A stretch of DNA of 64,000 nt, taken from NCBI RefSeq assembly GCF_058153355.1, contig NZ_CM177019.1; one strand, given 5' to 3'. The notes beneath the pieces were generated by a model that saw only the letters and a program-made list of their open reading frames with translations, did no database searches and had not been told where the DNA came from. The position numbers and the translations under genes were made by a program. Below are positions 15,201-47,305 of the stretch, one piece after another (within the stretch, counting starts at the first letter, position 1; each line of letters starts with the position of its first letter).

Positions 15201-17249
15201 GCGCTACCGGTAACACTCAACGAACAGGGCGAAGGCACGGTTACATTGCCGATTGGTGATTTTAACGGTGAATTGCGCGTCATGGCACAAGCATGGACAG
15301 CAGATGATTTCGGTAGCAACGAAAGCAAAGTGGTTGTTGCCGCACCGGTGATAGCAGAACTGAACATGCCGCGCTTTATGGCCAGCGGTGACACCTCACG
15401 TCTGACGCTGGATATCACTAATCTTACCGATAAACCGCAAAAACTGAACGTTGCTCTGACCGCCAGTGGCTTGCTTGAACTGGTTAGCGATTCACCCGCA
15501 GCCGTTGAATTAGCGCCGGGCGTGCGAACCACGCTGTTTATCCCGGTGCGAGCATTGCCGGGTTATGGTGATGGTGAAATTCAGGCCACTATCAGCGGGT
15601 TAGCGTTACCGGGTGAAACCGTTGCCGATCAGCATAAGCAGTGGAAAATGGGTGTCCGTCCGGCATTTCCGGCACAAACCGTCAATTACGGTACGGCGTT
15701 GCAGCCTGGTGAGACATGGGCGATTCCAGCTGATGGATTGCAAAACTTCTCGCCTGTTACGCTGGAAGGGCAATTGTTGTTGAGCGGCAAACCACCGTTG
15801 AATATTGCACGTTATATCAAAGAGTTAAAAGCGTATCCGTACGGTTGTCTGGAGCAAACCGCCAGCGGCCTGTTCCCGTCACTTTACACCAACGCAGCCC
15901 AACTGCAGGCGTTGGGAATCAAAGGCGACAGTGATGAGAAGCGCCGTGCGGCAGTCGATATCGGCATTTCTCGTTTACTGCAAATGCAACGTGATAACGG
16001 TGGCTTTGCGCTGTGGGATAAAAACGGTGATGAAGAGTACTGGCTGACGGCTTACGTGATGGATTTCCTGGTCCGCGCAGGTGAGCAGGGTTACAGCGTG
16101 CCGACAGAAGCCATTAACCGGGGGAATGAGCGTCTACTGCGCTATTTACAAGATCCGGGCATGATGTCGATTCCGTATGCGGATAATCTCAAAGCCAGTA
16201 AATTCGCCGTACAGTCTTACGCTGCGCTGGTGCTGGCCCGTCAGCAAAAGGCACCGCTGGGTGCGCTGCGTGAAATCTGGGAGCATCGTGCCGATGCTGC
16301 GTCTGGATTACCGCTGCTGCAACTTGGCGTTGCGCTGAAAACCATGGGCGATGCAACGCGTGGTGAAGAAGCGATTGTGCTGGCGCTGAAAACGCCGCGC
16401 AATAGTGATGAGCGGATATGGCTGGGTGATTACGGTAGTCCACTGCGCGACAACGCATTGATGCTCTCCTTGCTGGAAGAGAACAAATTGCTACCCGATG
16501 AGCAGTACCCTCTGCTGAACACACTTTCGCAGCAGGCGTTCGGTGAACGCTGGTTATCAACTCAGGAAAGTAACGCGCTGTTCCTGGCTGCCCGTACGAT
16601 TCAGGATTTACCGGGCAAATGGCAGGCGCAAACGTCTTTCTCTGCTGAGCTGCTGACAGGTGAGAAAGCGCAAACCAGCAATCTGAATAGCGATCAACTT
16701 GCCACCTTACAGGTGACCAACAGTGGCGATCAGCCGTTATGGCTGCGTGTGGATGCCAGCGGATATCCGCAATCCGCCCCTTTACCGGCGAGCAATGTGC
16801 TGCAAATCGAGCGCCATATTCTTGGCACTGACGGTAAGAGCAAATCGCTGGATTCGTTACGTAGCGGCGATCTGGTACTGGTCTGGTTGCAGGTCAAAGC
16901 CAGTAACAGCGTGCCGGATGCTTTGGTCGTTGATTTACTGCCTGCGGGCCTGGAACTGGAAAACCAGAACCTGGCTAACGGCAGCGCCAGCCTGGAGCAA
17001 AGTGGTAGCGAAGTGCAAAACCTACTCAGTCAAATGCAACAAGCGAACATTAAGCATATTGAGTTTCGTGACGATCGCTTTGTGGCGGCGGTTGCCGTTG
17101 ATGAATATCAACCAGTCACGCTGGTGTATCTGGCGCGGGCGGTAACGCCGGGAACATACAATGTTCCGCAACCAATGGTGGAATCGATGTATGTTCCCCA
17201 CTGGCGGGCGACTGGCGCGGCTGAAGATCTGTTGATTGTCAGACCGTAA
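12288..17249 (+). CDS. yfhM: alpha-2-macroglobulin family lipoprotein YfhM (ECAM)
   Basis: 1653-aa ORF with lipobox (LALAGC) and thioester motif CLEQ (GCLEQTAS); intact. Confidence 0.9.
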   Translation: MKKLRVAACMLMLALAGCDNNDNAPTAVKKDVPSEVTKAASSKNASSAKLSAPERQKLAQQSAGKALTLLDLSEVQLDGAATLVLTFSIPLDPDQDFSRVIHVVDKKSGKVDGAWELSDNLKELRLRHLEPKRDLIVTIGKEVKALNNATFSKDYEKTITTRDIQPSVGFASRGSLLPGKVIEGLPVMALNVNNVDVNFFRVKPEFLPAFISQWEYRNSLANWQSDKLLQMADLVYTGRFDLNPARNTREKLLLPLGDIKPLQQAGVYLAVMNQAGRYDYSNPATLFTLSDIGVSAHRYHNRLDIFTQSLENGAAQQGVEVSLLNEKGQTLTQATSDAQGHVQLENDKNAALLLARKDGQTTLLDLKLPALDLAEFNIAGAPGYNKQFFMFGPRDLYRPGETVILNGLLRDADGKALPDQPIKLDVIKPDGQVLRSVVSQPENGLYHFTWPLDSNAATGMWHIRANTGDNQYRMWDFHVEDFMPERMALNLTGEKTPLTPKDEVKFSVVGYYLYGAPANGNTLQGQLFLRPLREAVSALPGFEFGDIAAENLSRTLDEVQLTLDDKGRGEVSTESQWKETHSPLQVIFQGSLLESGGRPVTRRAEQAIWPADALPGIRPQFASKSVYDYRTDSTVKQPIVDEGSNAAFDIVYSDAQGVKKAVSGLQVRLIRERRDYYWNWSEDEGWQSQFDQKDLIENEQTLDLQADETGKVSFPVEWGAYRLEVKAPNEAVSSVRFWAGYSWQDNSDGSGAVRPDRVTLKLDKASYRPGDTIKLHIAAPTAGKGYAMVESSEGPLWWQEIDVPAQGLDLTIPVDKTWNRHDLYLSTLVVRPGDKSRSATPKRAVGVLHLPLGDENRRLDLALETPAKIRPNQPLTVKIKASNKNGEMPKQVNVLVSAVDSGVLNITDYVTPDPWQAFFGQKRYGADIYDIYGQVIEGQGRLAALRFGGDGDELKRGGKPPVNHVNIVAQQALPVTLNEQGEGTVTLPIGDFNGELRVMAQAWTADDFGSNESKVVVAAPVIAELNMPRFMASGDTSRLTLDITNLTDKPQKLNVALTASGLLELVSDSPAAVELAPGVRTTLFIPVRALPGYGDGEIQATISGLALPGETVADQHKQWKMGVRPAFPAQTVNYGTALQPGETWAIPADGLQNFSPVTLEGQLLLSGKPPLNIARYIKELKAYPYGCLEQTASGLFPSLYTNAAQLQALGIKGDSDEKRRAAVDIGISRLLQMQRDNGGFALWDKNGDEEYWLTAYVMDFLVRAGEQGYSVPTEAINRGNERLLRYLQDPGMMSIPYADNLKASKFAVQSYAALVLARQQKAPLGALREIWEHRADAASGLPLLQLGVALKTMGDATRGEEAIVLALKTPRNSDERIWLGDYGSPLRDNALMLSLLEENKLLPDEQYPLLNTLSQQAFGERWLSTQESNALFLAARTIQDLPGKWQAQTSFSAELLTGEKAQTSNLNSDQLATLQVTNSGDQPLWLRVDASGYPQSAPLPASNVLQIERHILGTDGKSKSLDSLRSGDLVLVWLQVKASNSVPDALVVDLLPAGLELENQNLANGSASLEQSGSEVQNLLSQMQQANIKHIEFRDDRFVAAVAVDEYQPVTLVYLARAVTPGTYNVPQPMVESMYVPHWRATGAAEDLLIVRP

Positions 17250-19551
17250 ATGCCTCGCCTGTTAACCAAACGCGGCTGCTGGATCACGCTGGCAGCTGCG
17301 CCCTTTCTCCTTTTTTTTGCCGCGTGGGGAGCAGATAAACTCTGGCCCCTGCCATTGCATGAAGTCAATCCCGCACGCGTAGTCGTGGCGCAGGATGGTA
17401 CGCCACTCTGGCGTTTCGCCGATGCTGAGGGCATCTGGCGCTATCCGGTAACCATCGAAGATGTCTCTCCGCGTTACCTTGAAGCACTGATCAATTATGA
17501 AGATCGCTGGTTCTGGAAGCATCCGGGGGTGAATCCATTCTCGGTGGCGCGCGCAGCATGGCAAGATCTCACTTCGGGACGGGTTATTTCCGGCGGCAGC
17601 ACACTCACCATGCAGGTTGCTCGTCTGCTTGATCCTCACCCCAAAACTTTTGGCGGCAAAATTCGCCAGCTCTGGCGCGCGTTTCAACTGGAATGGCACT
17701 TGTCTAAACGTGACATTCTGACCTTGTATCTTAATCGCGCTCCGTTTGGTGGTACGTTGCAGGGGATCGGTGCGGCAAGCTGGGCATATCTCGGAAAATC
17801 GCCTGCGAATTTAAGCTATTCCGAGGCGGCAATGTTAGCGGTGTTACCGCAAGCGCCCAGCCGACTGCGTCCGGATCGCTGGCCGGAACGTGCCGAGGCC
17901 GCACGTAATAAAGTGCTCAATCGGATGGCTGCGCAAGGTGTGTGGTCCCGTGAGCAGGTAAAAGAATCTAGTGAAGAGCCCATCTGGTTGGCACCCCGAC
18001 AAATGCCGCAACTGGCACCGCTGTTTTCGCGAATGATGCTCGGTAAAAGTAAAAGCGACAAAATCGTTACTACGCTGGATGCTGGTTTACAGCGTCGTCT
18101 GGAAGAACTGGCGCAAAACTGGAAAGGACGATTGCCACCGCGCAGTTCGTTGGCAATGATCGTTGTTGATCATACTGATATGAGTGTGCGCGGCTGGGTA
18201 GGATCGGGATGATTCCCGCTTTGGGCATGTCGATATGGTCAATGCGATCCGATCGCCGGGATCGGTACTCAAACCGTTTGTTTATGGTCTGGCGCTGGAT
18301 GAAGGCTTGATCCACCCTGCATCGCTGTTGCAAGACGTTCCCCGGCGCACTGGTGATTATCGACCAGGCAACTTTGACAGCGGTTTTCATGGCCCGATCA
18401 GCATGAGTGAGGCGCTGGTGCGCTCGCTGAATTTACCTGCTGTGCAGGTGCTGGAAGCCTATGGACCGAAACGGTTTGCGGCAAAGTTACGCAATGTTGG
18501 ATTGCCGTTATATTTGCCCAACGGTGCTGCACCGAATCTTTCGCTCATTCTCGGCGGCGCAGGTGCAAAACTGGAGGATATGGCTGCAGCGTATACCGCA
18601 TTTGCTCGCCACGGTAAGGCGGGTAAGTTGCGCTTACAGCCGGGGGACCCATTACTTGAGCGACCGTTAATGTCGCCGGGGGCCGCGTGGATTATCCGCC
18701 GAATTATGGCAGATGAAGCGCAGCCGCTTCCGGATGGCGCTTTGCCACGCGTCGTACCACTGGCGTGGAAAACAGGAACCAGTTATGGCTATCGCGATGC
18801 ATGGGCTATTGGCGTTAACGCTCGTTACGTAATTGGGATCTGGACTGGCAGACCGGACGGTACGCCCGTTGTCGGTCAGTTTGGCTTTGCCAGCGCCGTA
18901 CCGCTGTTGAATCAGGTCAATAATATCTTACTGTCGCGCAGTGCGAATCTGCCGGAAGACCCGCGTCCTGATTCTGTAAGCCGTGGCGTTATCTGCTGGC
19001 CGGGTGGGCAATCATTGCCAGAAGGTGACAGTAATTGCCGCCGTCGTCTTGCCACCTGGTTGCTCGAAGGTAGCCAGCCACCAACATTACTTTTACCGGA
19101 GCAGGAAGGAATAAGTGGGATTCGTTTCCCCATCTGGCTTGATGAGCAAGGTAAACGTGTTGCTGCTGATTGTCCTCAGGCTCGACAAGAAATGATTAAT
19201 GTCTGGCCATTACCACTTGAACCCTGGCTACCTGCTGCTGAACGACGAGCAGCGCGCTTACCTGGGGCATCAACAAATTGCCCGCCGTATGGTCGTGATG
19301 CTCAGGTACCTTTACAGTTGATTGGTGTGCGTAATGGCGTAATTATCAAACGTCTGCCAGGAGCTACTGATGCGTCATTACCAGTACAATTAAGCGGAGG
19401 AACAGGCGAACGCTGGTGGTTTCTTAATGGTGAACCGTTAGCTGAACGCGGGCGTAACGTGACTCTGCATTTGACAGAGAAAGGCGATTATCAATTACTG
19501 GTAATGGACGAAATGGGGCAGGTCGCGACGGTGAGATTTGTCATGCAGTAG
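17250..19551 (+). pseudogene. pbpC: penicillin-binding protein 1C (PbpC) split by a frameshift
   Basis: Two adjacent ORFs in different frames: 17250..18212 (transglycosylase GT51 domain, EDRWFWKHPGVNP) and 18235..19551 (transpeptidase, SPGSVLKP SxxK motif). The second frame read upstream gives ...DDSRFGHVDMVN back to a stop at 18199..18201, so the shift lies in 18199..18213. Confidence 0.8.
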
Positions 19552-27207: not shown

Positions 27208-28680
27208 ATGGTACCTGTGGTCGCGCTTGTCGGGCGCCCTAACGTAGGAAAATCCACGTTATTTAACCGTCTAACTCGCACCCGAGATGCGCTGGTTGCG
27301 GATTTCCCGGGTCTGACTCGTGACCGTAAGTACGGTCGTGCGGAAATTGAAGGCCGCGAGTTTATTTGTATTGATACCGGCGGGATTGACGGAACAGAAG
27401 ACGGTGTAGAAACCCGCATGGCGGAACAGTCGCTGCTGGCGATTGAAGAAGCGGACGTCGTACTGTTTATGGTGGATGCGCGCGCGGGCCTGATGCCTGC
27501 GGATGAAGCGATTGCTAAACATCTGCGCTCCCGCGAAAAACCGACCTTCCTGGTGGCAAACAAAACCGATGGTCTGGATCCGGATCAGGCCGTTGTTGAT
27601 TTTTATTCGCTCGGTTTAGGTGAAATCTATCCTATCGCCGCGTCTCACGGTCGTGGCGTATTAAGTCTGCTGGAGCACGTGCTGTTGCCGTGGATGGAAG
27701 ATATCGCACCACAAGAAGAAGTGGATGAAGACGCTGAGTACTGGGCGCAATTTGAAGCGGAAGAGAACGGCGAAGAAGAAGAGGAAGACGACTTTGACCC
27801 GCAAAGTCTGCCAATCAAACTGGCGATAGTGGGTCGTCCTAACGTCGGTAAGTCTACACTCACTAACCGTATCCTTGGCGAAGAACGCGTCGTAGTTTAC
27901 GACATGCCGGGCACTACGCGTGACAGTATCTACATTCCAATGGAACGCGATGGGCGTGAGTATGTACTCATTGACACTGCGGGCGTACGTAAACGCGGCA
28001 AAATCACCGATGCGGTAGAGAAATTCTCCGTAATCAAAACATTGCAGGCGATTGAAGATGCCAACGTGGTGATGTTGGTGATTGATGCTCGCGAAGGTAT
28101 TTCCGATCAGGATCTCTCCCTGCTGGGCTTTATTCTCAATAGTGGGCGCTCACTTGTGATTGTAGTGAACAAGTGGGACGGCCTGAGCCAGGAAGTGAAA
28201 GAGCAAGTAAAAGAGACGCTGGACTTCCGTCTGGGCTTTATCGACTTCGCCCGTGTGCATTTTATCTCTGCATTACACGGCAGTGGCGTTGGTAATCTGT
28301 TTGAATCAGTGCGTGAAGCGTATGACAGCTCCACCCGTCGTGTGGGGACATCTATGCTGACGCGTATCATGACCATGGCGGTTGAAGATCACCAGCCGCC
28401 GCTGGTTCGCGGGCGTCGTGTGAAGCTGAAATATGCCCACGCCGGTGGTTACAATCCGCCGATTGTGGTGATTCACGGCAACCAAGTGAAAGACCTGCCT
28501 GATTCGTACAAACGCTACTTGATGAATTACTTCCGCAAGTCTCTGGACGTGATGGGTACGCCGATTCGTATTCAGTTCAAAGAAGGGGAAAACCCATATG
28601 CGAACAAGCGTAACACCCTGACGCCGACCCAGATGCGCAAGCGTAAGCGTTTGATGAAGCATATTAAGAAAAGTAAGTAA
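27208..28680 (+). CDS. der: ribosome-biogenesis GTPase Der (EngA)
   Basis: ATG at 27208 gives 490 aa; two G domains (GRPNVGKST twice) and a basic C-terminus. Confidence 0.95.
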
Positions 28681-28742
28681 TCACTTATCTGGTTTCCCTT
28701 TCCAAACGGAGAGGGAAACTGAACAACAGGCGAGGAGTATTT

Positions 28743-28958
28743 ATGGAACTCAACTGCCCAACCTGCCATAACCCTCTCGAACGCAACGGTGAAACTGCCC
28801 ACTGTGCAACTTGTGCCAAAGATTTCACCATTCAGGCGCTTTGTCCTGACTGCCATCAGCCATTACAGGTGTTAAAAGCTTGTGGTGCAGTAGATTATTT
28901 CTGCCAGCATGGGCACGGTTTAATATCCAAAAAGCGCGTTGAATTTATTGTTGCTTAA
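28743..28958 (+). CDS. yfgJ: zinc-ribbon protein YfgJ
   Basis: 71-aa ORF with CxxC...CxxC pairs. Confidence 0.85.
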   Translation: MELNCPTCHNPLERNGETAHCATCAKDFTIQALCPDCHQPLQVLKACGAVDYFCQHGHGLISKKRVEFIVA

Positions 28959-29149
28959 TATTATTTAAATATATGGTGTAATCATTTGTATTCATAATAT
29001 AAATGATTGCATCCTATTTTATTTGTTGAAACGCAAATGTAAGTGAGCGAAATCACTGTGTTATAAATTTAAGATTATATTTAGTTTTCCTGGCGTGCCT
29101 TTCTGAATAATCTGGAATAGAATATTAGAGCTAATTTTAAGCATTATTA
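28959..29149 (+). promoter_or_regulatory. AT-rich leader / probable promoter region of the accessory insert
   Basis: ~190 bp of AT-rich sequence immediately upstream of the sinH-like gene; no specific promoter elements resolved. Confidence 0.35.
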
Positions 29150-31342
29150 ATGTCACAGGGGATGTGCATGCTGCGATGGAAACGCTGTATTATGCTAACA
29201 TTTATCTCTGGAGCTGCTTTTGCGGCTCCAGAGATAAATGTTGAGCATAAAGAATCGTTACCTGATTTAGGTAGTCAGGCCGCACAACAGGAAGAGCAAA
29301 CTAACAAGGGTAAATCGCTAAAAGAGCGTGGTGCCGATTACGTCATTAACTCTGCCACGCAAGGGTTTGAAAACCTGACACCCGAGGCGCTGGAGTCCCA
29401 GGCCAGAAGCTATCTGCAAAGTCAAATTACCTCTACGACACAATCTTATATTGAGGATACACTCTCCCCCTACGGTAAGGTCCGAACGAATCTTTCTCTT
29501 GGTCAGGGCGGCGATCTGGATGGCAGTTCCATCGATTATTTTGTTCCCTGGTATGATAATCAAACTACTGTTTATTTCAGCCAATTTTCTGCACAACGAA
29601 AAGAAGATCGTACGATCGGGAATATTGGGCTTGGTGTAAGACATAATTTTGATAGATGGTTATTGGGTGGAAATATATTTTATGATTATGATTTTACCCG
29701 TGGGCATCGCCGTTTAGGTTTAGGTGCCGAAGCCTGGACTGATTATTTAAAATTCTCTGGCAACTATTATCATCCGCTTTCTGACTGGAAAGACTCCGAA
29801 GATTTCGATTTTTATGAGGAGCGTCCTGCGCGCGGTTGGGATATTCGCGCCGAAGCCTGGCTACCCGCTTACCCGCAGCTTGGCGGTAAAATCGTTTTCG
29901 AACAGTATTACGGTGATGAAGTCGCGCTTTTTGGCACCGATAATCTGGAGAAAGATCCCTTCGCCGTCACGCTGGGTGTGAAATACCAGCCCGTACCGCT
30001 CATTGCCGTAGGAACGGATTTCAAAGCCGGCACTGGCGATAATACCGATCTTTCTGTTAACGCAACGCTGAACTACCAGTTTGGCGTCCCGCTCAAAGAC
30101 CAGCTTGATCCTGACAAAGTAAGCGCGGCTCACTCGCTCATGGGCAGCCGTCACGACTTTGTTGAACGTAACAACTTTATTGTTCTGGAATACAAAGAGA
30201 AAGATCCCCTCGATGTCACTTTGTGGCTGAAAGCTGATGCGACGAATGAACATCCCGAGTGCGTGATTAAAGATACGCCAGAAGCAGCCATCGGGCTGGA
30301 AAAATGTAAGTGGACCATTAACGCGCTCATTAATCATCATTACAAAATCGTTGCTGCCTCCTGGCAGGCGAAAAACAATGCTGCACGTACGCTGGTGATG
30401 CCGGTTATCAAAGAAAACACCCTTACTGAAGGGAACAACAACCACTGGAATCTGGTACTGCCTGCCTGGCAGTACAGCTCTGATAAAGCCGACCAGGAAA
30501 AACTCAATACCTGGCGGGTACGCCTGGCGCTGGAAGATGAAAAAGGCAATCGGCAGAACTCCGGCGTGGTGGAAATCACCGTTCAGCAGGATCGTAAAAT
30601 TGAGCTCATCGTTAACAACATCGCCAATGTACCGGATGAGAACAATCACAGCCACGAAGCCAGCGCGCAAGCGGATGGTGTAGATGGTGTCGTCATGGAT
30701 CTCGACGTTACCGATAGCTTTGGCGACAACACTGACCGTAACGGTAATGTCTTGCCGCAGGATAATCTCAGCCCGCAGCTGTTTGATGCCAACGATAAAA
30801 AAGTGACGCTGGCGAATAAACCCTGCACCACCGAAGTGCCGTGCGTTTTTATCGCCAAACAAGATAAAGAAAAGGGGACCGTTACGCTCTCCAGTACGTT
30901 GCCCGGCACCTTCCGCTGGAAAGCGAAAGCCGCCCCTTATGATGACAGTAACTATGTTGACGTAACGTTCCTGGGTTCTGACATCGGCGGGCTGAATGCT
31001 TTTATCTACCGCGTTGGTGCAGCTAAGCCCGTCAATCTTATCGGCAACAAAGAACCGTTGCCTCTCAATAGCCGCTATCGCTTTGTGCTGTGGCGCGACG
31101 CTAACAAAGACGGCGTGTTCCAGCTTTCTGAGAAGCTCACTGACGACGAGATGAAACAGTATGACTATCAGTGGGAATTCACGGGGAATAGCGTAAATGG
31201 CAATACCGGCGCGCAAACCAATACCACGAACGTCGATATAGAGATCCCGGCAACCAACAAGGAAGCGGCAGCAAAATTTAATGCTCAGGTAACCGATGGC
31301 GTGCAGGGATACGGTTTGCAGGTCAATTACAGCAAGAAATAG
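29150..31342 (+). CDS. sinH: intimin/invasin-family inverse autotransporter (SinH-like)
   Basis: 730-aa ORF. Residues ~150–340 match the intimin/invasin beta-barrel translocator (…ERPARGWDIRAEAWLPAYPQLGGKIVFEQYYGDEVALFG…GVKYQPVPLIAVGTDFKAGTGDNTDLSVNATLNYQFG…SRHDFVERNNFIVLEYKEKD, compare intimin …LIYEQYYGDNVALF…SRYDLVQRNNNIILEYKK). Signal peptide present; first in-frame start may be downstream of 29150. Confidence 0.8.
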   Translation: MSQGMCMLRWKRCIMLTFISGAAFAAPEINVEHKESLPDLGSQAAQQEEQTNKGKSLKERGADYVINSATQGFENLTPEALESQARSYLQSQITSTTQSYIEDTLSPYGKVRTNLSLGQGGDLDGSSIDYFVPWYDNQTTVYFSQFSAQRKEDRTIGNIGLGVRHNFDRWLLGGNIFYDYDFTRGHRRLGLGAEAWTDYLKFSGNYYHPLSDWKDSEDFDFYEERPARGWDIRAEAWLPAYPQLGGKIVFEQYYGDEVALFGTDNLEKDPFAVTLGVKYQPVPLIAVGTDFKAGTGDNTDLSVNATLNYQFGVPLKDQLDPDKVSAAHSLMGSRHDFVERNNFIVLEYKEKDPLDVTLWLKADATNEHPECVIKDTPEAAIGLEKCKWTINALINHHYKIVAASWQAKNNAARTLVMPVIKENTLTEGNNNHWNLVLPAWQYSSDKADQEKLNTWRVRLALEDEKGNRQNSGVVEITVQQDRKIELIVNNIANVPDENNHSHEASAQADGVDGVVMDLDVTDSFGDNTDRNGNVLPQDNLSPQLFDANDKKVTLANKPCTTEVPCVFIAKQDKEKGTVTLSSTLPGTFRWKAKAAPYDDSNYVDVTFLGSDIGGLNAFIYRVGAAKPVNLIGNKEPLPLNSRYRFVLWRDANKDGVFQLSEKLTDDEMKQYDYQWEFTGNSVNGNTGAQTNTTNVDIEIPATNKEAAAKFNAQVTDGVQGYGLQVNYSKK

Positions 31343-31391
31343 GGTCGGCGCCATGGCTGATCGGGCCACCGCTGAATATTAATCAAGGAGA

Positions 31392-32390
31392 GTGTTTATG
31401 AAACCTGATATGAAACGTGGCCTGACAAAAGTCGCGCTCGCGTTGATGCTGGCTGGATACTGTGCCGTACCAGCCGCTATGGCGGAAGATGCCGCCTGGG
31501 TCGCCAGTGGAGCGACCGCTGAATTCGAAGGGACTATACCCTGGCTCTATCGCGAAGGGGGGAATGCCACGATTAACTCGGAAGATGCGGATCACATTAA
31601 AGTGACGTCTGATGGTAAAGGGACCCGTCCTCCAGGTAGCGAGACGGATAAACGCCTTTACTCAGGGGATACCATCACGCTGGGTTGGGATATCGGCGAT
31701 ACCGAAGGGGATATTGATGATGGTCCCGCAGGCATTGATGCGAAAACGACGGCCACTATCAAATGGTACAGCTACAGCAATAATGCGGGTGGCGATAAAA
31801 CTGAGCTGACCGCAGCGGCAGGCAAGACGAGTTATAAACTCACTGATGACGATCGTGGGCGTTATATCGGTGTTGAAATCCAGCCCATCACCCAGACCGG
31901 TAATCCCTTCGAGGGAACGTCGCTGACTCTGCTGGATATTTCAACGGCCAGCGGTGGCGGCAGCGATACGGACAATGTCGATCCCGGCCCGGTTGTGAAC
32001 CAGAATCTGAAAGTTGCCATCTTCGAGAAAGGCACCACTACCAACCTTATCGGTGGTAACACGGCCATTGCGCTTAATAAAACATATGTGGCCAAACTGT
32101 ACTCGGATGAAAACCAGAACGATAAATACGACGCAGGTACGGATATGGACGTTACCGCTAACTATGACTTTGCATGGGTCTTTAACGGTAACAGTAAACA
32201 ACTCCGTGCTGCAGGCGGTATTGCTAATGCCAGCTTCGATAACAATGACATTGTTATCCCGCAAACTAACGAAGAAGCAAGAACCAGCCTTAACGGTAGT
32301 GACCGTAATGGTAAGAGTGGTCTTGCGATCCCAGCAAACGGCGACGGCGTTCAGGGCTATACGCTGTCAATTATTTACAAACACCACTAA
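31392..32390 (+). CDS. sinI: secreted protein paralogous to the SinH C-terminal domain (SinI-like)
   Basis: 332-aa ORF with signal peptide (KVALALMLAGYCAVPAAMA). C-terminus shares clear motifs with the SinH C-terminus: YDFAWVFNGNS / YDYQWEFTGNS, IVIPQTNEEAR / IEIPATNKEAA, DGVQGYTLSIIY / DGVQGYGLQVNY. Confidence 0.6.
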   Translation: MFMKPDMKRGLTKVALALMLAGYCAVPAAMAEDAAWVASGATAEFEGTIPWLYREGGNATINSEDADHIKVTSDGKGTRPPGSETDKRLYSGDTITLGWDIGDTEGDIDDGPAGIDAKTTATIKWYSYSNNAGGDKTELTAAAGKTSYKLTDDDRGRYIGVEIQPITQTGNPFEGTSLTLLDISTASGGGSDTDNVDPGPVVNQNLKVAIFEKGTTTNLIGGNTAIALNKTYVAKLYSDENQNDKYDAGTDMDVTANYDFAWVFNGNSKQLRAAGGIANASFDNNDIVIPQTNEEARTSLNGSDRNGKSGLAIPANGDGVQGYTLSIIYKHH

Positions 32391-32499
32391 TGCGCACGAC
32401 TGCATTCCCGTAGGGGAATGCTGTTTTCCGCCTGTTTTGCTTAGCGACGCGTTAAGCAAAACAGGTTGATGTTTTGTTTATCATGTTGGAGTTTTCTAC

Positions 32500-35400
32500 A
32501 TGTCGGTATGTCTGAAACCAGGGAAAATCATTATGCTTCTGGGCATGTTGGCAGCGTTTATGCTGTCTGACTTTGCACGAGCAGGGGTGGAATGGCAGAC
32601 ATATCCTGATTCTACAGGCGAGTTTAACGGAACCGTTCCTTTTGCCGACAGCGCCAGCGTACCCGTCTATCAGGGCAGTGTTCAGCTTAATCCTGGCGAA
32701 TCTCATGATGTCGGGTTTTCTGCTAAACCGAATGAATTTAGCGTTGACGATGACGCCGCTAACCTGATTGTTGCTAATCCTCAGGACAATGAAGGCGACC
32801 AGTTTTCCACACCACCTGCGCTGCGCTGGGAAAATCAAACACCCCCTACCGTCAGCCTGGTGTGGGCCGATGCCGCCACGCCCGATGTACCCCTTAACCC
32901 ACAACCCATTGCTAACCGTAGCTTTTGTGCTCAGGGGCTCGCCGGACGCTCGCTGGTGGCCTGGCCGCAGATTGATGCGCAGCAAACCCTCCCACTGCTC
33001 TACCTGTTGACCTCGACCGGCTATCCCTATGCGGGGACGGTGGCGCTGGTGGACCAGAAAGTGACCCTGAACATCGCGCCCGCGCAGGGCGATTTAATCT
33101 CGGTGAGCGCCAGCGGTTATAACGAAACGATCGCGGCGGCAAAAACCACCGTTGGCGACACCATCACGCTCACCGTCACCACTAAAGATTGTCAGGGCAA
33201 CGTCGCGGGTAATATTCCGTTTATTATCAAACGTAAAGATGCTGAAAATCGCCAGGGGGCAGTGAATAATAGTGCGCCAGTGGTACTGGATAGCACCGAG
33301 TTAACGACGACGGCTACCGAATACCATGGCACCTCTGATGCCAACGGCACGGCCACCATCACGGTGAGCCAACCGAACGGCCCTGGCGTCAAAACGCCAC
33401 TGGTGGTCAGCATTTCCGGCATTGCGCAAACCAGCGAAACCGCGGTGATTTTTACGGTGCTCACCAGCCCGGACGCGGCGCAGGCTACGATGTGGGGCCA
33501 TATGGCGGAAACGGTAGAAGCGCACGGTTACACCTTCAGTCGACCAAAGCTGGCGGCAGAAGTCAGCAATGAAAGCGCCACGGTCGTCGATCACAACGAA
33601 ACCTGGTCCACCTTCACCTGGAGCGGCGCAGATAACCACTGCACCGTGCTGCCCGGCATGCGCCACTTCGGCGCGCTGGCGACCGTTATCCCCACATCGG
33701 TGCAGACAGTCCTTGGCTGGCCGATGCAGGGGGATTATTACTGGTCATCGCTGGCGGGCACCACCGGGCAGCACCATGCGGCGGATGTCTCTAACCGTGG
33801 TGAAACGCAAAAGCCGGATAGCACCCCGTTTCTTGTAAGCTGCGTGGATAAACCCGCGCCTGATGTCGAGCCGAAAATCGTCCTTACGCCCGAAAACTAT
33901 GATGATACGGCACAGGCGATGAAATCGCAGGTGGGCGAAGACGCCACGATGCGTCTGACGATCACCGACAATAAAAATAACGATCAACCACTGGCGTATT
34001 ACTACTTCTCGCTGCATCTGGATGACGGCGTTAACCGCAAAAATCAAACCGATTCCGCCTGGGAAGCCCATCCGGTGCAGATTACTGGTGGTTCGAATTT
34101 GCAACAGGTTGATGCTCACACCTATGAAGGCATGACCGATGTCAACGGTCAGGCTTCGCTAACCCTGAGTCAGCCCGACGGCGCAGGCGTGAAAACCCAT
34201 ATCACGGCGAAAATGCGCAGCAATTTTACGGCTACAGATGCCAAAGACGTGATTTTTACTGTGATCACCAGCCCGGACAGCGACAAGGCGCGGATGTGGG
34301 GCCATATGCGCGGCATTGTTGTATCTGGCAGTCTGTTCAAACGCCCAGTGCTGGCGGATGAAACTGAGCATGAACTGGGATCGGTGCGGGAAAATAACGA
34401 AGACTGGGCGCTGTTCGATCAAGACACCAGTATGCAGGCTGAATGCGGCGTCGGCCATACGCCAAGTCAGAGTGGGCTGGAAAGCCTTTTTTCAGCCCAT
34501 CCCGGTAACGCGATTGGCACTGAGTATGGCTGGCCCACCGCACAACAGAACTACCTAAGCGCGGTGGAGCAAGCCACGCATTCATCGGTGAATTTGGCGA
34601 ACGGAAACGTCGACAGCTACCCCGGCTTTAAGCGAAATTACCTCTCCTGTTCGGGCAATGAGATGGTCGCGAAGGTTGAAGTGAGCACCGATCACGATGT
34701 CACCCCTGGCAGCAAAGCGCAGGCCAAAGTGGGAGACACCGTCGTGATGACCGTGCGTACGGTTAACGCGCTCAATAATACCCCCGTTCCCTTTACTGCC
34801 TTCACCATCACTAAAGGCATGGGGTATAACCGAGCGGGGCTGGTGAGCGGGTTTGATGACCCGAGCAGCGGCGCAATCTCGATGAATGGCACGCAATACG
34901 GCACATCGCAGCCGTCGATGGTTTATACGGGTACGACAGATGCACAAGGCGTGGCAACGGTCGAAATAGAGCAACCACAAGGCGTCGGGCTAAGAACGGC
35001 GCTGAGCGTAACGCCGGTAAATTCCTACCTGCCGAATACCGTTAATTACAGCGTTATTTTCACCACCCCAACCAGCCCGGACGTTATTGGCGCGCAGATG
35101 TGGGGCCATATGGATGAAACGATTACTGTTGATTCATTAACCTTTACCCGGCCTAAGCTGGCAGCAGAAATCGCCAGTCCGGATGGCACACTAACGGAAA
35201 AAAACGAAGTCTGGGCGCGCGTTAGCCAGGCCAGTACGGCCATTACCAGTAAAGGCGGTTGCGGAGCCAATATGCTGCCGCGTCGCTCACAGCTCAGTGC
35301 GCTCTATGACGCTAATAACGGCAATGCGGTGCAAACCACACACGGCTGGCCGACGCAGCGTCAGCCCTACTGGAGCAGTTCCCCCGCGGATGTAACGCCG

Positions 35401-38400
35401 CACTATTACACCATTGCCCTGGATAACGGCGCACAGGCTATCGGCGGCGATACGCCGGTTTACGTCAGTTGCCTGACGACGGCGAACAAACCTGCCAGCA
35501 GCATTACGCTGGATGTGGTTGATAACGCACAGTGGGCTGCCGGAAATAACGCGGCGAAGCTGAAAAAAGGCGAAACGCTACGGGTTAAGGTAACGGTAAA
35601 AGATGCGCAGGGTAATCCGCTCACGGATATGCCATTTAAACTGAGTCGCGGAGACGGTTATACCCGCACGGGCGAAAAACATATTGCCGGTAGTGGCGAT
35701 GCGCTGGTGGCACCGGTGGTGATTAACAGTGGGCTGGCGGATGAAACGACGTTGAACGACACCGCGGGATTTTATACTGCCATGACCGGTAGCGACGGCA
35801 GCAAAATCCTCAATATTACCCGCCCGGATACTCACGGCACCAAAACGGCGCTGACGGCGACGTTGTATTCCGATGCAACAAAAAAAGACAGCCTGGATAC
35901 GATCTTTACTGTGGTCACCAGCCCGGATAGTAGCAAAGCGAAAATGTGGGGGCATATGCCGGAAACGGTGACGGCTGCGGACGGTACGGTATTTAAACGC
36001 CCGCTGTTGTTGAAGGAACTGGCCTATCAGACTGGGCGAACATCGACGTCTGAAGACAATGAAAACTGGGCGTTGTTTAACATTAATTATGCGAGTTCTT
36101 CCACGACGTATAGTGGCTGTGGAACCAACTATATTCCGACTCAAGCCGGTCTGACGTCACTGTTTGCTAATAATGCGGGCAACACCATGAAAACCGTGCA
36201 GGGCTGGCCGGTGGCAACACGCTATTTGTCCAACACGTCCGACAACGGCAGCATGGAGCAGCGTAACTACAAGGCGGTAGATCTCAGCAATGGCACGAGT
36301 GCGGCAGTGTCATCAACGGCGCTGCAACTGCTGACCTGCCAGACCACGCCGGTAACCACGGTGGGCCAAATTCTGCTGGAAGCGGCAGATCCGGCGACGC
36401 TGGATACCACCTATAACGTGGTAAAAGCGAAAAAAGGCGAAGAATCCGTGGTGCGCGTCACCACCAAAGATACGCAAGGCAACCTGGTGGGCAATACGGC
36501 ATTTATCCTGACGCGTGCCAACAGCGTGAGTCGGGCTAACGCATCAGCAACCGCGAGCGTGGGCGCGCTGACGGTGACGGATGCTTGGGGAAATACGCGA
36601 AATAATTTCCAGTCGACGAGTGAAACGATTTACGGCGTGACTGGTGCAGACGGGTCAACGACATTTACCCTGAAACAGGATAACAGTACCGGGTTAAGAA
36701 CCGATCTCACGGCAAAACTGGATACGTCCAGCAGCGTCAAGGCGACGCTACCGGTGGTCTTTACTGTCGTGACCAGCCCGGATTCGCCAAAAGCGAATTT
36801 TTGGGGACATATGGCCGAAACGGTGATGGCCTCCGACGGTACAATCTATAAACGACCACTGTTGTTGAAAGAGCTGAGTAACACCAGTGGTCGAAATTCT
36901 ACGGCTGAAAACGGTGAAGATTGGGCAAGATTCACCTGGACTCAGTCGGCTGACACCAGCATGAATGGGTGTGGTACAGATTATATGCCGACGCTGGATG
37001 GACTGAAGTCTTTGTATGACGCCAATAGCGGTAATGTGATGAGTACGGTGCAGGGATGGCCGGTAAAAACGACCTATCTCACCAATACCCCGAGTGATAC
37101 GCAAACAGGGAGCCGTTACTACAATGTGGTGCAACTGAATACTGGTGCAGTCTCACAAATCTCGACGAACACAGTCGTGCTACAAACCTGCCGCACAACG
37201 CCGTTGACGGCTGCTAGCCAGATTACGCTGGAGGCCTCAGACCCCGCGCAATTTGTCAGCATTGACAGTACGCTTAGCGCGATCAAAGTGCAGAAAGGCG
37301 ATAGCGTGTCGATCCGCATTTCGACTAAAGATGCACAGGGGAATTTAGTCGGCAATACGCCGTTTGCCCTGAAACACGCTAACCCGGTCAATCGCCAAAA
37401 TGTGGCGTCAACATCGCAGAAAGTGTCGGTCACGACTGCGTCGGGTACGACGGTGGATACCACTGCATCGACCATTCTGTATGGCGTGACCGGGCCAGAC
37501 GGAACCACCACGATGACACTCCGACAGGATGCGTCTACTGGACTCAAAACCGACTTTTATGCTCTGTTGAACGATACCGGCGTGTCGTCGAACACCTTGC
37601 CAGTGATCTTCACCGTCGTCACCAGCCCGGATACACCGCTGGCGGCCAACTGGGGGCATATGGCAGAAACCTTTACCAGCAGCAAGGGAGTCACCTTCAA
37701 ACGGCCTTTCCTCAAAGCTGAACTTTCTGGTGGTACGGCGGTAACGACCAATAATGAAGTCTGGTCGCGCCTGACAGCAACGGAGAAAACGGATGCCAGC
37801 AAGGCTGGGTGTGATGAGAGTTATCAACCGCTGATGACTGACATGCAGGGGTTGTATGCGGATTACCCTAACAACCAGTTGGGCACGGTGCTCGGCTTGC
37901 CGACTTCCGCCGGGTATATGTGGGCCTACGACATGATGACGGTTTCTGGCAGCAGCTGGAGCAACCAGGCATATTCGCTCGTTAATGGTCAGACAGTTCA
38001 GGCATCGTCCAGTTATACGGCGGTAGTGATGTGCCTGGTGGAACCGCATACCGTTCCGGCGATGATAGAGATCACTTCAACAGCACAGGATGCGGCAAAA
38101 ACGGTCAGCAATGGTGGTCGACCGAGCGCCGTAGCGAAGAAAGGTGAGACGATTCCGCTGACGGTGACCGTACGTGATAGCACCGGGAATCCGGTACCCT
38201 ACGCCGACTTTACCCTCACGCGTGGAACGACGCTGGATCGCTCGAAAGCAACCGTTAACTCGAGTGCGGACGATCTTACCGTGAAGTCATTGATACCCGC
38301 GAACAGTGACGCTGGGCTGACGGCAAATGGGGCAAAAGTGCTCAGAACAACGGGCAGTGATGGCACAGCCACCTTTGAAGTGAGCCAGAATGCCACGACA

Positions 38401-40590
38401 GGACTGGCGACCCCCATAACCGTCACGCTGGCGCGTGATGTAACCAAAACCGCCACGCTGGATGTTATCTACACGGTGATAACCAGCCCGGACTCACCGA
38501 GCGCGAAATTCTGGGGGCACATGCCGGACACCTTTACCAGTTCGGCAGGCGTCACCTTCAGACGACCGCTGCTGAAAGCCGAAGCGACTTCAGGGTCATC
38601 GATTAGCACTAACGGCAATGGTGAAGTGTGGTCGTATATGAGCAACGTTCAAAATTTAACATCGACAGATTGTCCGCTGGAGAATCAACCGCGCAGTAAT
38701 GAATTGTTGGATTTGTATAATGATCATCCCAACGGCGCGATAATGACTGACCTGGGGCTGCCGATATATGCAGGCAAGTGGTGGGCTTATGATATGGTCA
38801 TGCCGGATTTATATACGTGGCAGTATCAGACGGTCAGCCTGAGCGCAGGAGATATCGCGAAGAGCTCGGCAAGCAACGCGCTGATGCTTTGCCTGACGAA
38901 GCCGCATCCGGCAGGCGTCAGCGTAATGTTGACGTCATCCGCAATGGATAACGCCAGAACCCTCAGTAATGGCGGGCGACCCAGCGCGTCAGTGAAAAAA
39001 GGTAACCCACTGCCAATTGTGGTGACGGTCAAAGATCGTGATGGCAACCCGCTGGCGGGAGAGGCCGTGACGCTCAGGCGTGGTTCAGCGATGAGTCGTT
39101 CAGGAGCAGGAGTGGGCACGCCGGCAAATGCAATGACGTTGACAGAATTGACACCTGTGTCGGCGGAGTTTTCTCTGGCCGCACACGATACGCAATGGCA
39201 AGGTTTCACCGGCAGTGATGGTACGGCCACTTTCAATGTTGAACAGCCTGAGACCATCGGCCTGGCCATTTCGTTCACCGCTATACTGGCGCGAGATGTA
39301 GCAACTACCAGCGTCCTTGATGCGATCTTTACCGTCGTTACCAGCCCGGATTCCGCAATGGCGACCTACTGGGGCCATATGCCGGATACGGTAACGGCGG
39401 AAAACGGCGTGGTCTTTGAACGGCCTAAATTGTTGAAAGAGCTGCCGTCGAGCGCCGGAGTCAGTCAGGTGACGGATAACAATGAAGTGTGGCCGTTGTT
39501 TAAGGCAACGCAAAGGGAAGATAGCAGCCTCAGTCCTTGTGAAGCGGCACGTCGGCCATTGAGCGATGATTTATTATCGCTCTACGCGCGCTATCCGGGG
39601 AACACGCTGACGACTCAAATCGGCTGGTCTACGAAGTATGCATGGTGGGCACTGGATAACAAGCAGGGGAATGCCCTGGTTGTCAGTCTGAATAATGGTT
39701 TTGAGTCGTCGACGGCGAGTACGGGGTATCAGGGATGTCTGGTCAATCCCCGCGCGACCGTCTCCAGCGTCACGCTGACATCGACGGCGCTGGATGCCAC
39801 TACGCAGGCAGCGAAGGTAAAAAAAGGTGAAGCCGTGCCCCTCGTTGTTACCGTAAAAGACAACGCCGGGAAGCCGGTACCGAATGTCGCTTTCACCTTA
39901 AAACGTGGTGATGCCATGCCACGTAACAGCGGGGCGACGTTGTACGGTGATGTTGCGGCGATGGATGATATGACGGTACAACCTGCCAGCGGGACGGTGG
40001 TAACGCTGGCTGACAGTGGGAATACGGTCGACGGAGTGACTGGGGCGGACGGTACGGCAAGTTTTACCGTTCGTCAGGATAATACGCCAGGATATAAAAC
40101 GCCGTTGACGGTGACGCTGACGGATAACGCCACAATAACGGCGATGCTGGATACGATTTTCACCGTCGTTACCAGTCCAAATGTACCCACAGCCCATTTT
40201 TGGGGACATATGTCGGATACCACTGTGGTAAACGGTAAAACGCTACATCGTCCACAGTTGGAATCAGAACTGCCATCGGCAGCCATCATGGTGGCAACAC
40301 CGAACGTCAATAATGAGACGTGGGCACTGGCGCATACTGTTGACTCGCAAAAATGGGATATTTCGCAGCAGTGCGGCCTCCTTGATTTTGCACCGAATTA
40401 TGCGGATTTAGAGGCTCTGCACACTAACTTCAGTACTCTCGGATGGCCGTCAATGCCTAATACCCCCTATCTATCTAAAGACAGAGAGCGGTCAGGTAAG
40501 TATTACTGCGGTATGATTGAAGAGACAGGTTCTCAATCTTGCAGTATTGAGCCTACCAGCACGCCGGGATTTGCTACTTGTGTCAGGTAA
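32500..40590 (+). CDS. ratA: giant repetitive surface protein, RatA-like (2696 aa)
   Basis: Single uninterrupted ORF with N-terminal signal-like hydrophobic segment ([17 protein letters not shown]) and nine tandem modules each carrying the motif [IV]FTV[VI]TSPD-x6-WGHM…RP.L…E.W…GCG…GWP…C. Confidence 0.75.
33000..40300 (+). repeat. nine tandem ~840-bp coding modules inside ratA
   Basis: TSPD-WGHM motif DNA (accagcccgga...tggggncatatg) recurs at about 33465, 34267, 35065, 35915, 36773, 37623, 38483, 39343 and 40173, period ~800–860 nt; the copies are diverged, not identical. Confidence 0.7.
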
Positions 40591-40599
40591 AAAAAACAG

Positions 40600-40630
40600 A
40601 GCCAGCACGACGATGCTGGCGCGTTTTATC
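40600..40630. terminator. hairpin between convergent ratA and xseA
   Basis: gccagcacgacgatgctggcg followed by ttttat, in the 44-bp gap between the two stop codons. Confidence 0.5.
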
Positions 40631-40634
40631 TGAT

Positions 40635-42041
<1,407 letters not shown>

Positions 42042-45933: not shown

Positions 45934-46452
45934 TTAGCTCTTTTCAGGACATTTGGTATTTGGCTGAATACGCGTTTCGTTATACGTCGTGGTAATAACA
46001 ACGGCTAAACCTGTCGTAAACTGGCACTCTTTACCCACCTGGGTGGAGGTATACACTTTGGTGCCTTCCTTATACGTTAGAGAAACACCTTCCACTAAGG
46101 TTTTATCATTCACCATAGAACCTGCTGCCGCGCCAACAGCTCCGCCGCCAACTGCACCTGCCGTCGTTCCGGAATTGCTGCCAGACCCCACGTTGTGGCC
46201 GATAACACCGCCAGCGACTGCACCAATAAGCGCGCCGAAGGCTTGTGCGTTTCGTTTATTTTGGGAGTTGTCTACGGCAACTTTTGCGGGAAGAATGGAA
46301 ATAATATTAACGGTTTTAGTTTCTTGTTTGGTATTCAGTTGATCGGTTTGATAAACATCGGCGGCATGATCATCAGCATTTGACTGGCATCCTGCCAGAG
46401 TGAATGACGCTAACATTGCCACAGGTAGAAGACATTTTTTAAATTTCATCAC
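45934..46452 (-). CDS. yfgH: glycine-zipper outer-membrane lipoprotein YfgH
   Basis: 172-aa ORF with lipobox (LAGC) and Gly-rich GxxxG tract. Confidence 0.8.
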   Translation of the reverse strand: MMKFKKCLLPVAMLASFTLAGCQSNADDHAADVYQTDQLNTKQETKTVNIISILPAKVAVDNSQNKRNAQAFGALIGAVAGGVIGHNVGSGSNSGTTAGAVGGGAVGAAAGSMVNDKTLVEGVSLTYKEGTKVYTSTQVGKECQFTTGLAVVITTTYNETRIQPNTKCPEKS

Positions 46453-46762
46453 TATTCCTTGTTATACACATTACGAAAAATAAGACATTTAAGATCATCA
46501 AAAGAGGAAAGTAAATGTATTGCGTATAAAGGAATAGATTAAATTTATTAAAATTCATGTGGAAAATAATTTATAAAAATACATCATTAAAACATATGTA
46601 TTAATTTTATATTTATTTCGCAGCCAAACAGGATAAACATCAGTCAGGACAAAGACGTAAAATTTAAGATGAAAGAATATCTGCCGCTTTGATAATCCCA
46701 AAGAGCAAAAGCATCCGACAGCGAGGTGCCGTTATGTTCTGTGAAAGTGGAGAAGGTAACCG

Positions 46763-46954
46763 CTAACGTTGTACCGGTGATTCGACGGAGAGTGTGGATT
46801 GCTGAGCTTCTTTTTTGCTCTGATGGTGCTGCCATGCACCGACGGACGAGTAGATAAAACGGCCAAAGAAGAAGATAAAGCTGATGAGCAGTACGATACG
46901 GGTCATGCGACTGTTAAATCGGTGTCGTTTTCGCATACTGGTTGCCTGACTCAC
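46763..46954 (-). CDS. yfgG: small membrane protein YfgG
   Basis: 63-aa ORF with one hydrophobic helix (IVLLISFIFFFGRFIY); expected position between yfgH and pdeF. Confidence 0.65.
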   Translation of the reverse strand: MSQATSMRKRHRFNSRMTRIVLLISFIFFFGRFIYSSVGAWQHHQSKKEAQQSTLSVESPVQR

Positions 46955-47164
46955 AAAAGGTTCCTTGAAGTATGTCCCACGCCGTGGACGGTACTTACAT
47001 TAAGGCACAACAGGACAAAATGGTCAATTCTTCGTTATGTAAAAAAGCGTCAGTGGATACATATTTTAATGTTATGGAAGTTAATTTAATTATTTACAAT
47101 GATGATGTAATAATGATGAATTAACATGATAAACGTAATAATTCATTAATCAGGGGTATTTTGT

Positions 47165-47178
47165 TTGATATATATCAA
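47165..47178. promoter_or_regulatory. perfect FNR/CRP-class palindrome TTGAT-atat-ATCAA upstream of pdeF
   Basis: Exact TTGATatatATCAA ~130 bp upstream of the pdeF start, within an AT-rich divergent yfgG/pdeF regulatory region. Confidence 0.55.
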
Positions 47179-47305
47179 TTGGAACTTTCATATGACACTT
47201 AGAATCAATGCTCTCTATAGTGATGAATAATCATCATTCGAAGTCAGGTGGGATGCCTGTCTGAATACACCTCCTTCAGGATGTGGGGGATTCTGCTGAG
47301 CATCT

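Follow-up and report, generated by a model that had tools for sequence, protein, structure and literature searches.

The sinH-sinI-ratA adhesin operon between yfgJ and xseA: a probable long-standing chromosomal locus whose alleles and absence move by homologous recombination

SinH is an intimin-like inverse autotransporter whose gene in Salmonella belongs to the CS54 island, with the order shdA-ratB-ratA-sinI/sivI-sinH/sivH between xseA and yfgJ/der (Kingsley et al. 2003, as presented in PMC4943183). The E. coli counterpart iatB and the gene downstream of it form the locus described by Goh et al. 2019 (PMC6714894), who reported 74% identity between E. coli IatB and Salmonella SinH, and the region has been catalogued both as genomic region "GR17 xseA..yfgJ" and as the CS54-derived ila cluster (PMC12928451). 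SinH is under development as a vaccine antigen for extraintestinal pathogenic E. coli (ExPEC); the locus is routinely termed a "horizontally acquired pathogenicity island". Here we analyzed a stretch of 64,000 nucleotides from contig NZ_CM177019.1 (assembly GCF_058153355.1; hereafter, the window), in which positions 28959-40634 are the known sinH-sinI-ratA adhesin operon ("ila", iatB, CS54-like) and not an insertion into this genome. The identity of the locus was already known; the recombination mosaics and the hairpin within sinH described below are minor new details, and the impact of the work is modest. Taken together, the results make it quite probable that the operon is a long-standing resident of the slot between yfgJ and xseA in Escherichia, Salmonella, and Citrobacter and that its alleles, as well as its absence, move by homologous recombination.

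The segment is 11.7 kb long and consists of three open reading frames (ORFs) on the + strand, apart from non-coding stretches of 209, 49, 109, and 44 bp (411 bp in total). All three ORFs exceed the curated NCBIfam cut-offs. The first, sinH or iatB (29168..31342), matches the SinH equivalog NF033423 over its full length with 1478 bits against a cut-off of 999; sinI (31392..32390), encoding a SinI-family autotransporter-associated protein without a beta-barrel, scores 377 bits against a cut-off of 165 with NF040711; and the ratA-like gene (32500..40590, stop codon at 40588-40590), encoding a giant repeat adhesin of 2,696 aa, scores 5386 bits against 3870 with the RatA-like model NF011844. The rat-type ORF carries DUF823/DUF824 (BIg21/InvE_AD) repeats in eight tandem modules of ∼804-861 nt each, and the repeats within the segment are these internal modules of the giant adhesin gene. 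In near-identical E. coli regions, RefSeq labels the three products as SinH, SinI family, and adhesion domain-containing protein. For sinH, the longest ORF starts at 29150, and the true start is likely the ATG at 29168, which is the RefSeq start of a 99%-identical gene; the NCBIfam SinH model aligns from residue 1 with this ATG, and the ATG and the conserved Shine-Dalgarno sequence AGGG(G/A)A ahead of it both align across genera. The operon is bounded on the left by yfgJ (28743..28958, + strand, TAA at 28956-28958), which encodes a zinc-ribbon protein and is the last core gene of the left flank, and on the right by a divergent allele of xseA (40635..42011, - strand, stop codon at 40635-40637), which encodes the large subunit of exonuclease VII.

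Compared with CS54, the window locus sits in the same slot, the order der-yfgJ-sinH-sinI-ratA is the same on the Salmonella contig, and the Salmonella leader is likewise AT-rich (35% GC over 363 bp) and holds the same TTTAGGAATATATTTAG element. Salmonella has an extra ratB, seen here, and shdA as a further CS54 gene, whereas the window has a single rat-type ORF (2,696 aa) before xseA, that is, the three-gene Escherichia version; Salmonella SinI is only 40-44% identical to that of the window. The E. coli ila/iatB locus has the same three genes and the same flanks and is the same locus, although the window carries a rare allele of it with a right-border patch that is absent from all complete E. 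coli genomes. The enterocyte effacement locus (LEE) at selC and the pathogenicity islands (PAIs) of uropathogenic E. coli (UPEC) strain 536 are examples of classical tRNA-linked pathogenicity islands. With these, the window locus shares the character of a strain-variable block with virulence-associated adhesins, but a tRNA target, an integrase, flanking direct repeats, and a deviant G+C content are all missing. Closer in behavior is the O-antigen rfb-gnd region, one of the "bastions of polymorphism", hypervariable surface-antigen loci that are exchanged by homologous recombination with hitch-hiking flanks. Both loci show deeply divergent alleles at a fixed position, raised divergence in adjacent core genes, and cross-species exchange without mobility genes; the window locus differs in that absence is one of its "alleles" and in that it carries a type Ve secretion/adhesin operon in place of genes for polysaccharide biosynthesis. 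Finally, the locus shares with zirTSU (Heinz et al. 2016, PMC4943183) the pairing of an inverse autotransporter with a downstream partner that lacks a barrel and looks like the autotransporter's passenger domain: residues 213-331 of SinI match the SinH model, and residues 618-721 of SinH match the SinI model. The same authors proposed SinH as the exporter of SinI and of the Rat proteins (PMC4943183); secretion of SinI and RatA through SinH is a published hypothesis.

The position of the operon is shared well beyond E. coli. When the SinI alignment was scanned over GTDB species representatives, 20 loci were recovered, and 16 of them have the order der-yfgJ-sinH-sinI-rat-xseA-guaB, complete or as far as contig ends allow. 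These comprise E. whittamii, three further Escherichia records, three Pseudocitrobacter, several Citrobacter, Superficieibacter, and one other Enterobacteriaceae; SinI genes away from yfgJ/xseA occur, among the 20, only in Leminorella and Citrobacter sp. R56. In E. albertii, the contig of the type strain reads yfgJ-sinH-sinI-rat up to its end, the Salmonella enterica contig reads rodZ-ispG-hisS-yfgM-bamB-der-yfgJ-sinH-sinI-ratA-ratB, and the slot is also occupied in loci whose XseA is labeled E. fergusonii. The most parsimonious reading of this synteny is that the operon has been in the slot since before Escherichia, Salmonella, and Citrobacter split and that the empty state found in E. coli is derived. 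The earlier note on this DNA, made from the letters of the window, had offered two possibilities, an old acquisition that has since been tidied or an ancestral locus missing from the K-12 lineage; the shared synteny, the native composition, and the overlapping stop codons of K-12 described below favor the latter.

Within E. coli, we surveyed 5,426 complete genomes, counting sinH-sinI at ≥80% of length, and found the pair in 1,687 of them (31%). This frequency matches the published survey in which iatB (= sinH), at a conserved position, was present in 35% of genomes (PMC6714894). By phylogroup, sinH has been reported in 98% of B2, 100% of F, 100% of G, and 67% of D, and as absent from A and B1 commensals (PMC9937491). 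A contiguous yfgJ|xseA junction of the K-12 type is present in 3,668 genomes (68%), and 3,666 of these junctions are at least 95% identical to that of K-12. In K-12 and the other empty strains, yfgJ and xseA overlap by 4 bp, such that the palindrome TTAA provides both stop codons and there is no intergenic DNA. The empty state is thus one homogeneous haplotype, and the term "insert" used in the earlier note is a misnomer. K-12-type E. coli would be carriers of a single old empty haplotype from which everything between the two stop codons has gone. One candidate for a divergent empty junction, HS-02 (87.5% identity), proved to be a frameshift-ridden assembly of an ordinary K-12-type junction. 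The occupied genomes fall into at least four sinH-sinI allele classes relative to the window, at ∼99% (18 genomes), ∼91.5% (743), 80-90% (183), and ∼78% identity (the rest), and the window allele is rare, with sinH-sinI at ≥95% identity in only those 18 of the 5,426 genomes. We also note signs of decay of the operon in some E. coli, where ratA is frameshifted (isolate 538, L003 5497-13577) or sinH is truncated (strain E69, L022 8792-10309), and, in strain FY10 (hit H10), an insertion sequence (IS) of the ISKpn26 family within the locus.

Presence or absence of the operon is linked to a divergent haplotype block of ∼14.5 kb (∼27500..42000) that is apparent from identity to K-12. The flanks of the window, for example bamB and the start of guaB, are 97-98% identical to K-12; identity falls to 92% in the 3' half of der (from ∼27.5 kb), 68.5% in yfgJ, 80% in the 3' half of xseA, and 90% in its 5' half, before recovering at ∼42.0 kb at the xseA/guaB boundary. 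The elevated divergence therefore reaches ∼1.4 kb into der/yfgJ and spans all of xseA. The wider flanks are 96.7-98.9% identical to E. coli, so that the ∼89% identity in der/xseA is local to the haplotype block; a non-coli Escherichia as the source of the window can be ruled out on the same grounds. K-12 is comparably distant from other occupied E. coli (64-67% in yfgJ, 78-82% in the 3' half of xseA). The gene edges, which the earlier note had taken for clean borders, do not coincide with the evolutionary breakpoints, and presence and absence sit inside a block with deep coalescence. The yfgJ gene itself is dimorphic in E. coli: the empty-site and island-linked alleles (28743-28958 versus L027) are 64-68% identical in nucleotides and ∼68% in amino acids, with nearly all differences in the N-terminal half and a conserved C-terminal half. 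Identity to K-12 is also lowered in the pbpC region (16500-19500), at 79-93% versus 97-99% in neighboring genes.

Direct signs of exchange come from mosaic loci. We compared the locus of Pseudocitrobacter vendiensis (L004 8570-20972) with positions 29600-42000 of the window and with two congeners, P. faecalis and a Pseudocitrobacter metagenome-assembled genome (MAG). The bamB and der genes of P. vendiensis are 92-94% identical to its congeners and 78-85% to E. coli. For its sinH (from ∼nt 450), sinI, and ratA, identity is 96-99% to E. coli EC42405 and 69-83% to the congeners, and its xseA is 93% identical to EC42405 (93-94% including the comparison with the window) and 85-87% to the congeners. 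The left crossover lies inside the region of sinH that encodes the barrel, and the AT-rich leader is still of the Pseudocitrobacter type. As judged from these identity profiles, the P. vendiensis locus is a demonstrated case of an intergeneric homologous recombinant. The window itself is also a mosaic. Most of its island shows 99-100% identity to E. coli EC42405 and R32_14_1F, with the exception of a patch at 40000..41000 that comprises the 3' end of ratA, the gap, and the 3' end of xseA, where identity to these strains is 77-79%. This patch has no match above 81% among the 5,426 complete E. coli genomes and is 97-98% identical to two loci (L034, L035) with XseA labeled E. fergusonii, which share the hairpin-containing gap of the window minus one A and plus one substitution. 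Alleles have moved in recent times, even between genera; the locus is old, yet this particular allele need not be. Positions 36000-37500, within the ratA-like modules (33430-40178), form a separate recombination patch, with 74-77% identity in P. vendiensis and in the E. fergusonii-labeled loci versus 95-99% on either side. In one of the latter genomes (L035 5284-6534), a phage-type integrase and prophage genes adjoin guaA, such that mobile DNA integrates nearby and not at the yfgJ|xseA slot.

We propose that presence, absence, and alleles would have spread by homologous recombination, with crossovers in conserved flanks or internal sequence (der, the sinH beta-barrel region, xseA/guaB) and with no site-specific recombination involved. 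Because exchange of this kind needs no integrase and leaves no scars, it would account for the clean edges and for the lack of tRNA, integrase, IS, and direct-repeat scars, and it is the simplest account of them. ARAGORN finds no tRNA or tmRNA gene in the whole 64 kb. None of the three ORFs of the segment is a mobility gene, and the neighbors in the RefSeq record of a near-identical locus are all core genes (pbpC, ndk, rlmN, rodZ, ispG, hisS, yfgM, bamB, der, and yfgJ on the left; xseA and guaB on the right). When the borders are compared with each other, direct matches are no longer than 7 nt and inverted matches no longer than 8 nt, lengths that 64% and 23% of 300 shuffles reach, respectively. 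The earlier note was correct that tRNA, integrase, IS fragment, and direct repeat are all lacking. In composition, the segment has a GC content of 52.8% versus 52.2% and 49.9% in the flanks and 51.8% in the window. The GC content at third codon positions (GC3) of the three operon genes is 0.52, 0.52, and 0.60 versus a core mean of 0.56 ± 0.05, and in codon usage they lie 0.088, 0.132, and 0.080 from the pooled core, versus a core spread of 0.115 ± 0.025. All three Chi sites in the segment point the same way as the nine in the core flanks. The operon is indistinguishable from the core genome in composition, codon usage, and Chi orientation.

The 209-bp AT-rich leader between yfgJ and sinH (28959..29167, + strand) has a GC content of 27.8% when measured up to the ATG at 29168. 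Its first 191 bp (28959-29149), which the earlier note had singled out as an AT-rich left border of ∼190 bp, have 25.1% GC versus 51.8% for the window, and only 0.25% of 191-bp windows are as low or lower. Comparable AT-rich tracts occur only at 46.4-47.3 kb, where the tract 46378-47276 is even more AT-rich (down to 19% GC) and lies upstream of a 747-aa ORF (47306-49549) that falls within a stretch annotated as pdeF in matching E. coli records. The length of the leader (∼205-211 bp) and its GC content (24-30%) are conserved across Escherichia alleles. At 28975..29013 (+ strand), an AT-rich hairpin followed by a T-run has a terminator-like score (-20.9 kcal/mol, z = -5.2) and is a candidate terminator for der-yfgJ. 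Cross-genus alignment reveals a 17-bp element, TTTAAGATTATATTTAG, at 29068..29084 (+ strand), which is found as TTTA[A/G]GAAT.TATTTAG in Escherichia, Salmonella, Citrobacter (MGH106), and Superficieibacter and may be a regulator-binding site. It lies upstream of a -10-like hexamer, TAGAAT (29118..29123, + strand), identified in the leader alignment 44 nt upstream of the ATG and lacking a good -35; the hexamer reads TATAAT or TACAAT in other alleles and is a candidate for an activator-dependent sinH promoter. An Rfam scan of 28600-29400 returned only sub-threshold, hairpin-driven matches (best 22.6 bits versus a gathering score of 80; STnc400, 19.9 versus 80), which we dismissed as chance. The leader would thus be the operon's own control region, composed of the der-yfgJ terminator hairpin, a conserved upstream element, and the -10 box of a weak, activator-dependent promoter. 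With 75% AT, it is also a candidate for a promoter silenced by H-NS, as the earlier note had suggested. In E. coli SMS-3-5, the iatB promoter is silent in the laboratory, LeuO overexpression lifts the transcript ∼15-fold without detectable protein, and all 12 up-mutants obtained in the promoter study drove leuO (PMC6714894). H-NS is known to be antagonized by LeuO (Shimada et al. 2011, as cited in PMC6714894). The sinH promoter is probably silenced by nucleoid proteins, then, and opened by LeuO.

How the operon came to the slot can be weighed against three other accounts. A recent insertion of a mobile island, with integrase and attachment repeats lost or missed, would explain why the operon varies among E. 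coli strains and encodes virulence-associated adhesins, and "pathogenicity island" stands in the title of Shea et al. 2022 (as listed in PMC12525524). This account is effectively refuted: the 64 kb hold no tRNA, and the segment has no mobility ORF and no flanking repeats above chance; composition, codon usage, and Chi polarity are native; the position is the same in at least five genera; and only 411 bp are non-coding, with the 209-bp leader as the largest stretch, which can be aligned to the leaders of orthologous loci. A recent mobile element can therefore be ruled out, in agreement with the view of the earlier note that this is no recent insertion. An old single acquisition into the slot in an ancestor of Escherichia, Salmonella, and Citrobacter, with scars since lost and host composition adopted, concerns the deeper origin and is compatible with a long-standing resident operon; we consider it possible but doubtful. 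It is suggested by SinI homologues off-site in Leminorella and Citrobacter sp. R56, by a review that terms the ila locus "horizontally acquired" (PMC12525524), and by other cargo in the slot elsewhere. In Enterobacter mori (L030 6001-7589) and Klebsiella aerogenes (L031 6001-7576), the slot holds a protealysin-type M4 peptidase and emfourin, with a 4-bp TTAA stop overlap between yfgJ and the emfourin gene as between yfgJ and xseA in K-12; in Atlantibacter hermannii (L032 6001-7603), it is empty. The yfgJ|xseA slot is a recurrent cargo site without mobility genes. Against an acquisition, there is no trace of a vehicle, the composition is fully native, and vertical inheritance from a common ancestor explains the same position in at least five genera equally well. 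Extra DNA (∼2-5 kb) also separates der from yfgJ in L010, L011, L013, L015, and L017 (Citrobacter, Superficieibacter, and one other Enterobacteriaceae) and in Enterobacter mori (L030 3313-5950), where it encodes an MFS/PTR2 transporter and a GFO_IDH-type oxidoreductase; since several genera are involved, the der-yfgJ junction is a second variable point beside the locus.

Alternatively, the empty state could be ancestral in E. coli, with phylogroups B2, D, F, and G and the window strain having gained the operon by homologous introgression from other Escherichia or neighboring genera. The E. coli alleles are indeed very divergent (78-99% in nucleotides; SinI 46-97% in amino acids), with some nearer to other species, the 27.5-42 kb block of the window differs from other E. 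coli far more than the DNA around it does, and intergeneric import is seen in P. vendiensis. However, every other Escherichia species sampled is occupied, and the empty state is one homogeneous haplotype (≥95% identity in 3,666 genomes), as expected if it is derived. In the established E. coli phylogeny, B2, F, G, and D branch early. These are the phylogroups reported as occupied (PMC9937491). We judge introgression into an ancestrally empty E. coli to be improbable. The long-standing operon with derived absence, which we prefer, has to contend with several results of its own. The flanks of the empty haplotype are far from those of every occupied haplotype sampled (yfgJ 64-74% in nucleotides, 3' half of xseA 70-84%), and the empty haplotype therefore does not derive by simple recent deletion from any occupied allele in the sample. 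A search for the donor of the K-12 empty haplotype found none, the closest non-coli YfgJ being only ∼70-75% identical; either an ancient deletion in situ or replacement by a foreign empty allele would fit. Deeper in the family, the slot does not always hold this operon (Enterobacter, Klebsiella, Atlantibacter), and the operon must therefore have come into it at an earlier time. Between allele types, even within Escherichia, SinI identity is only 40-45%, which could reflect cassette replacement rather than vertical descent. Two motif searches in the leader were likewise unfavorable. A sigma-70 consensus scan gave no + strand site at threshold and a single site on the - strand, fewer than in shuffles, so that cross-genus conservation carries the promoter call by itself; the missing + strand site fits an activator-dependent promoter but is no proof of one. 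The high-affinity H-NS nucleation motif tCGATAAATT, reportedly defined by Lang et al. 2007, is absent from 28959-29167 at ≤2 mismatches, the nearest occurrence being at 28942-28951 in yfgJ. This absence does not settle the matter, since generic AT-rich DNA is also bound by H-NS.

Within the coding region for the sinH signal peptide, 30-75 nt into the gene, a near-perfect inverted repeat of 21 bp with a 4-nt loop (29197..29242, + strand) is a candidate mRNA hairpin. Folded within 131 nt of sequence, it reaches -55.2 kcal/mol (z = -7.0). Other Escherichia alleles retain the stem with compensatory changes (GGAGC/GCUCC to GGUGC/GCACC), with a further such change in E. albertii (ACAUUUAU/AUAAAUGU to ACGCUUAU/AUAAGCGU), and in Pseudocitrobacter, Citrobacter MGH106, and Superficieibacter a shorter stem with another sequence occupies the same place. 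Across 22 sinH sequences, with the structure taken from one of them, 73% of cells pair versus 33-47% with a slid partner, and the covariation score is 0.30 versus 0.09-0.13 for slid partners, a value that 0 of 500 shuffles reach. Among the sinH 5' ends compared, the hairpin is strong in alleles of the Escherichia type and absent from the MOD1, C. youngae, and C. gillenii types, and RNAalifold found no consensus structure for the 22 diverse 5' ends; the hairpin is therefore not family-wide. Two further ideas, as a pair, we advance tentatively, as possible and short of probable: that the slot holds an ancient cross-species polymorphism of presence/absence and multiple alleles and that the sinH hairpin is a post-transcriptional brake. 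The brake may act on translation or as an RNase III target. If it exists, it would explain the LeuO-induced transcript without detectable SinH/IatB protein. Selection on surface adhesins may keep the polymorphism, and homologous recombination may reshuffle it, even from Escherichia to Pseudocitrobacter; in that case, the K-12 empty allele would be one old haplotype and not a lineage-specific deletion.

For the use of SinH as an antigen, the results indicate an old chromosomal locus without the structural marks of a mobile island, whose alleles and absence are exchanged even across genera. Antigenic diversity is to be expected, with at least four allele classes in E. coli and SinI identities of 40-97%, and epidemiological readings of presence and absence should allow for recombination. 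Island finders that use composition or integrases will miss variable virulence loci of this type. The conserved leader element and the hairpin in the 5' coding region provide handles on the laboratory silence of the operon.

At the right border, the convergent ratA-like gene and xseA are separated by a gap of 44 bp (40591..40634) that contains, as the earlier note had recognized, a hairpin shared with xseA. The GC-rich hairpin GCCAGCA-N6-TGCTGGC (40601..40620) lies between an A-run and a T-run and is terminator-like on both strands. Its stem has 7-8 bp with five GC pairs, and its tail is weak on the + strand (GCGTTTTATC) and strong on the - strand (TCTGTTTTTT); folding z scores versus shuffles are -2.4 (+ strand) and -3.4 (- strand). 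The hairpin is placed such that it may terminate both the ratA-like gene and xseA. Among alleles, the right-hand gap ranges from 2 to 150 bp, one truncated allele overlaps, and some gaps contain REP-like palindromes. The stem of the window resembles the outer stem of a longer palindromic gap found in E. coli E1005 and E686.

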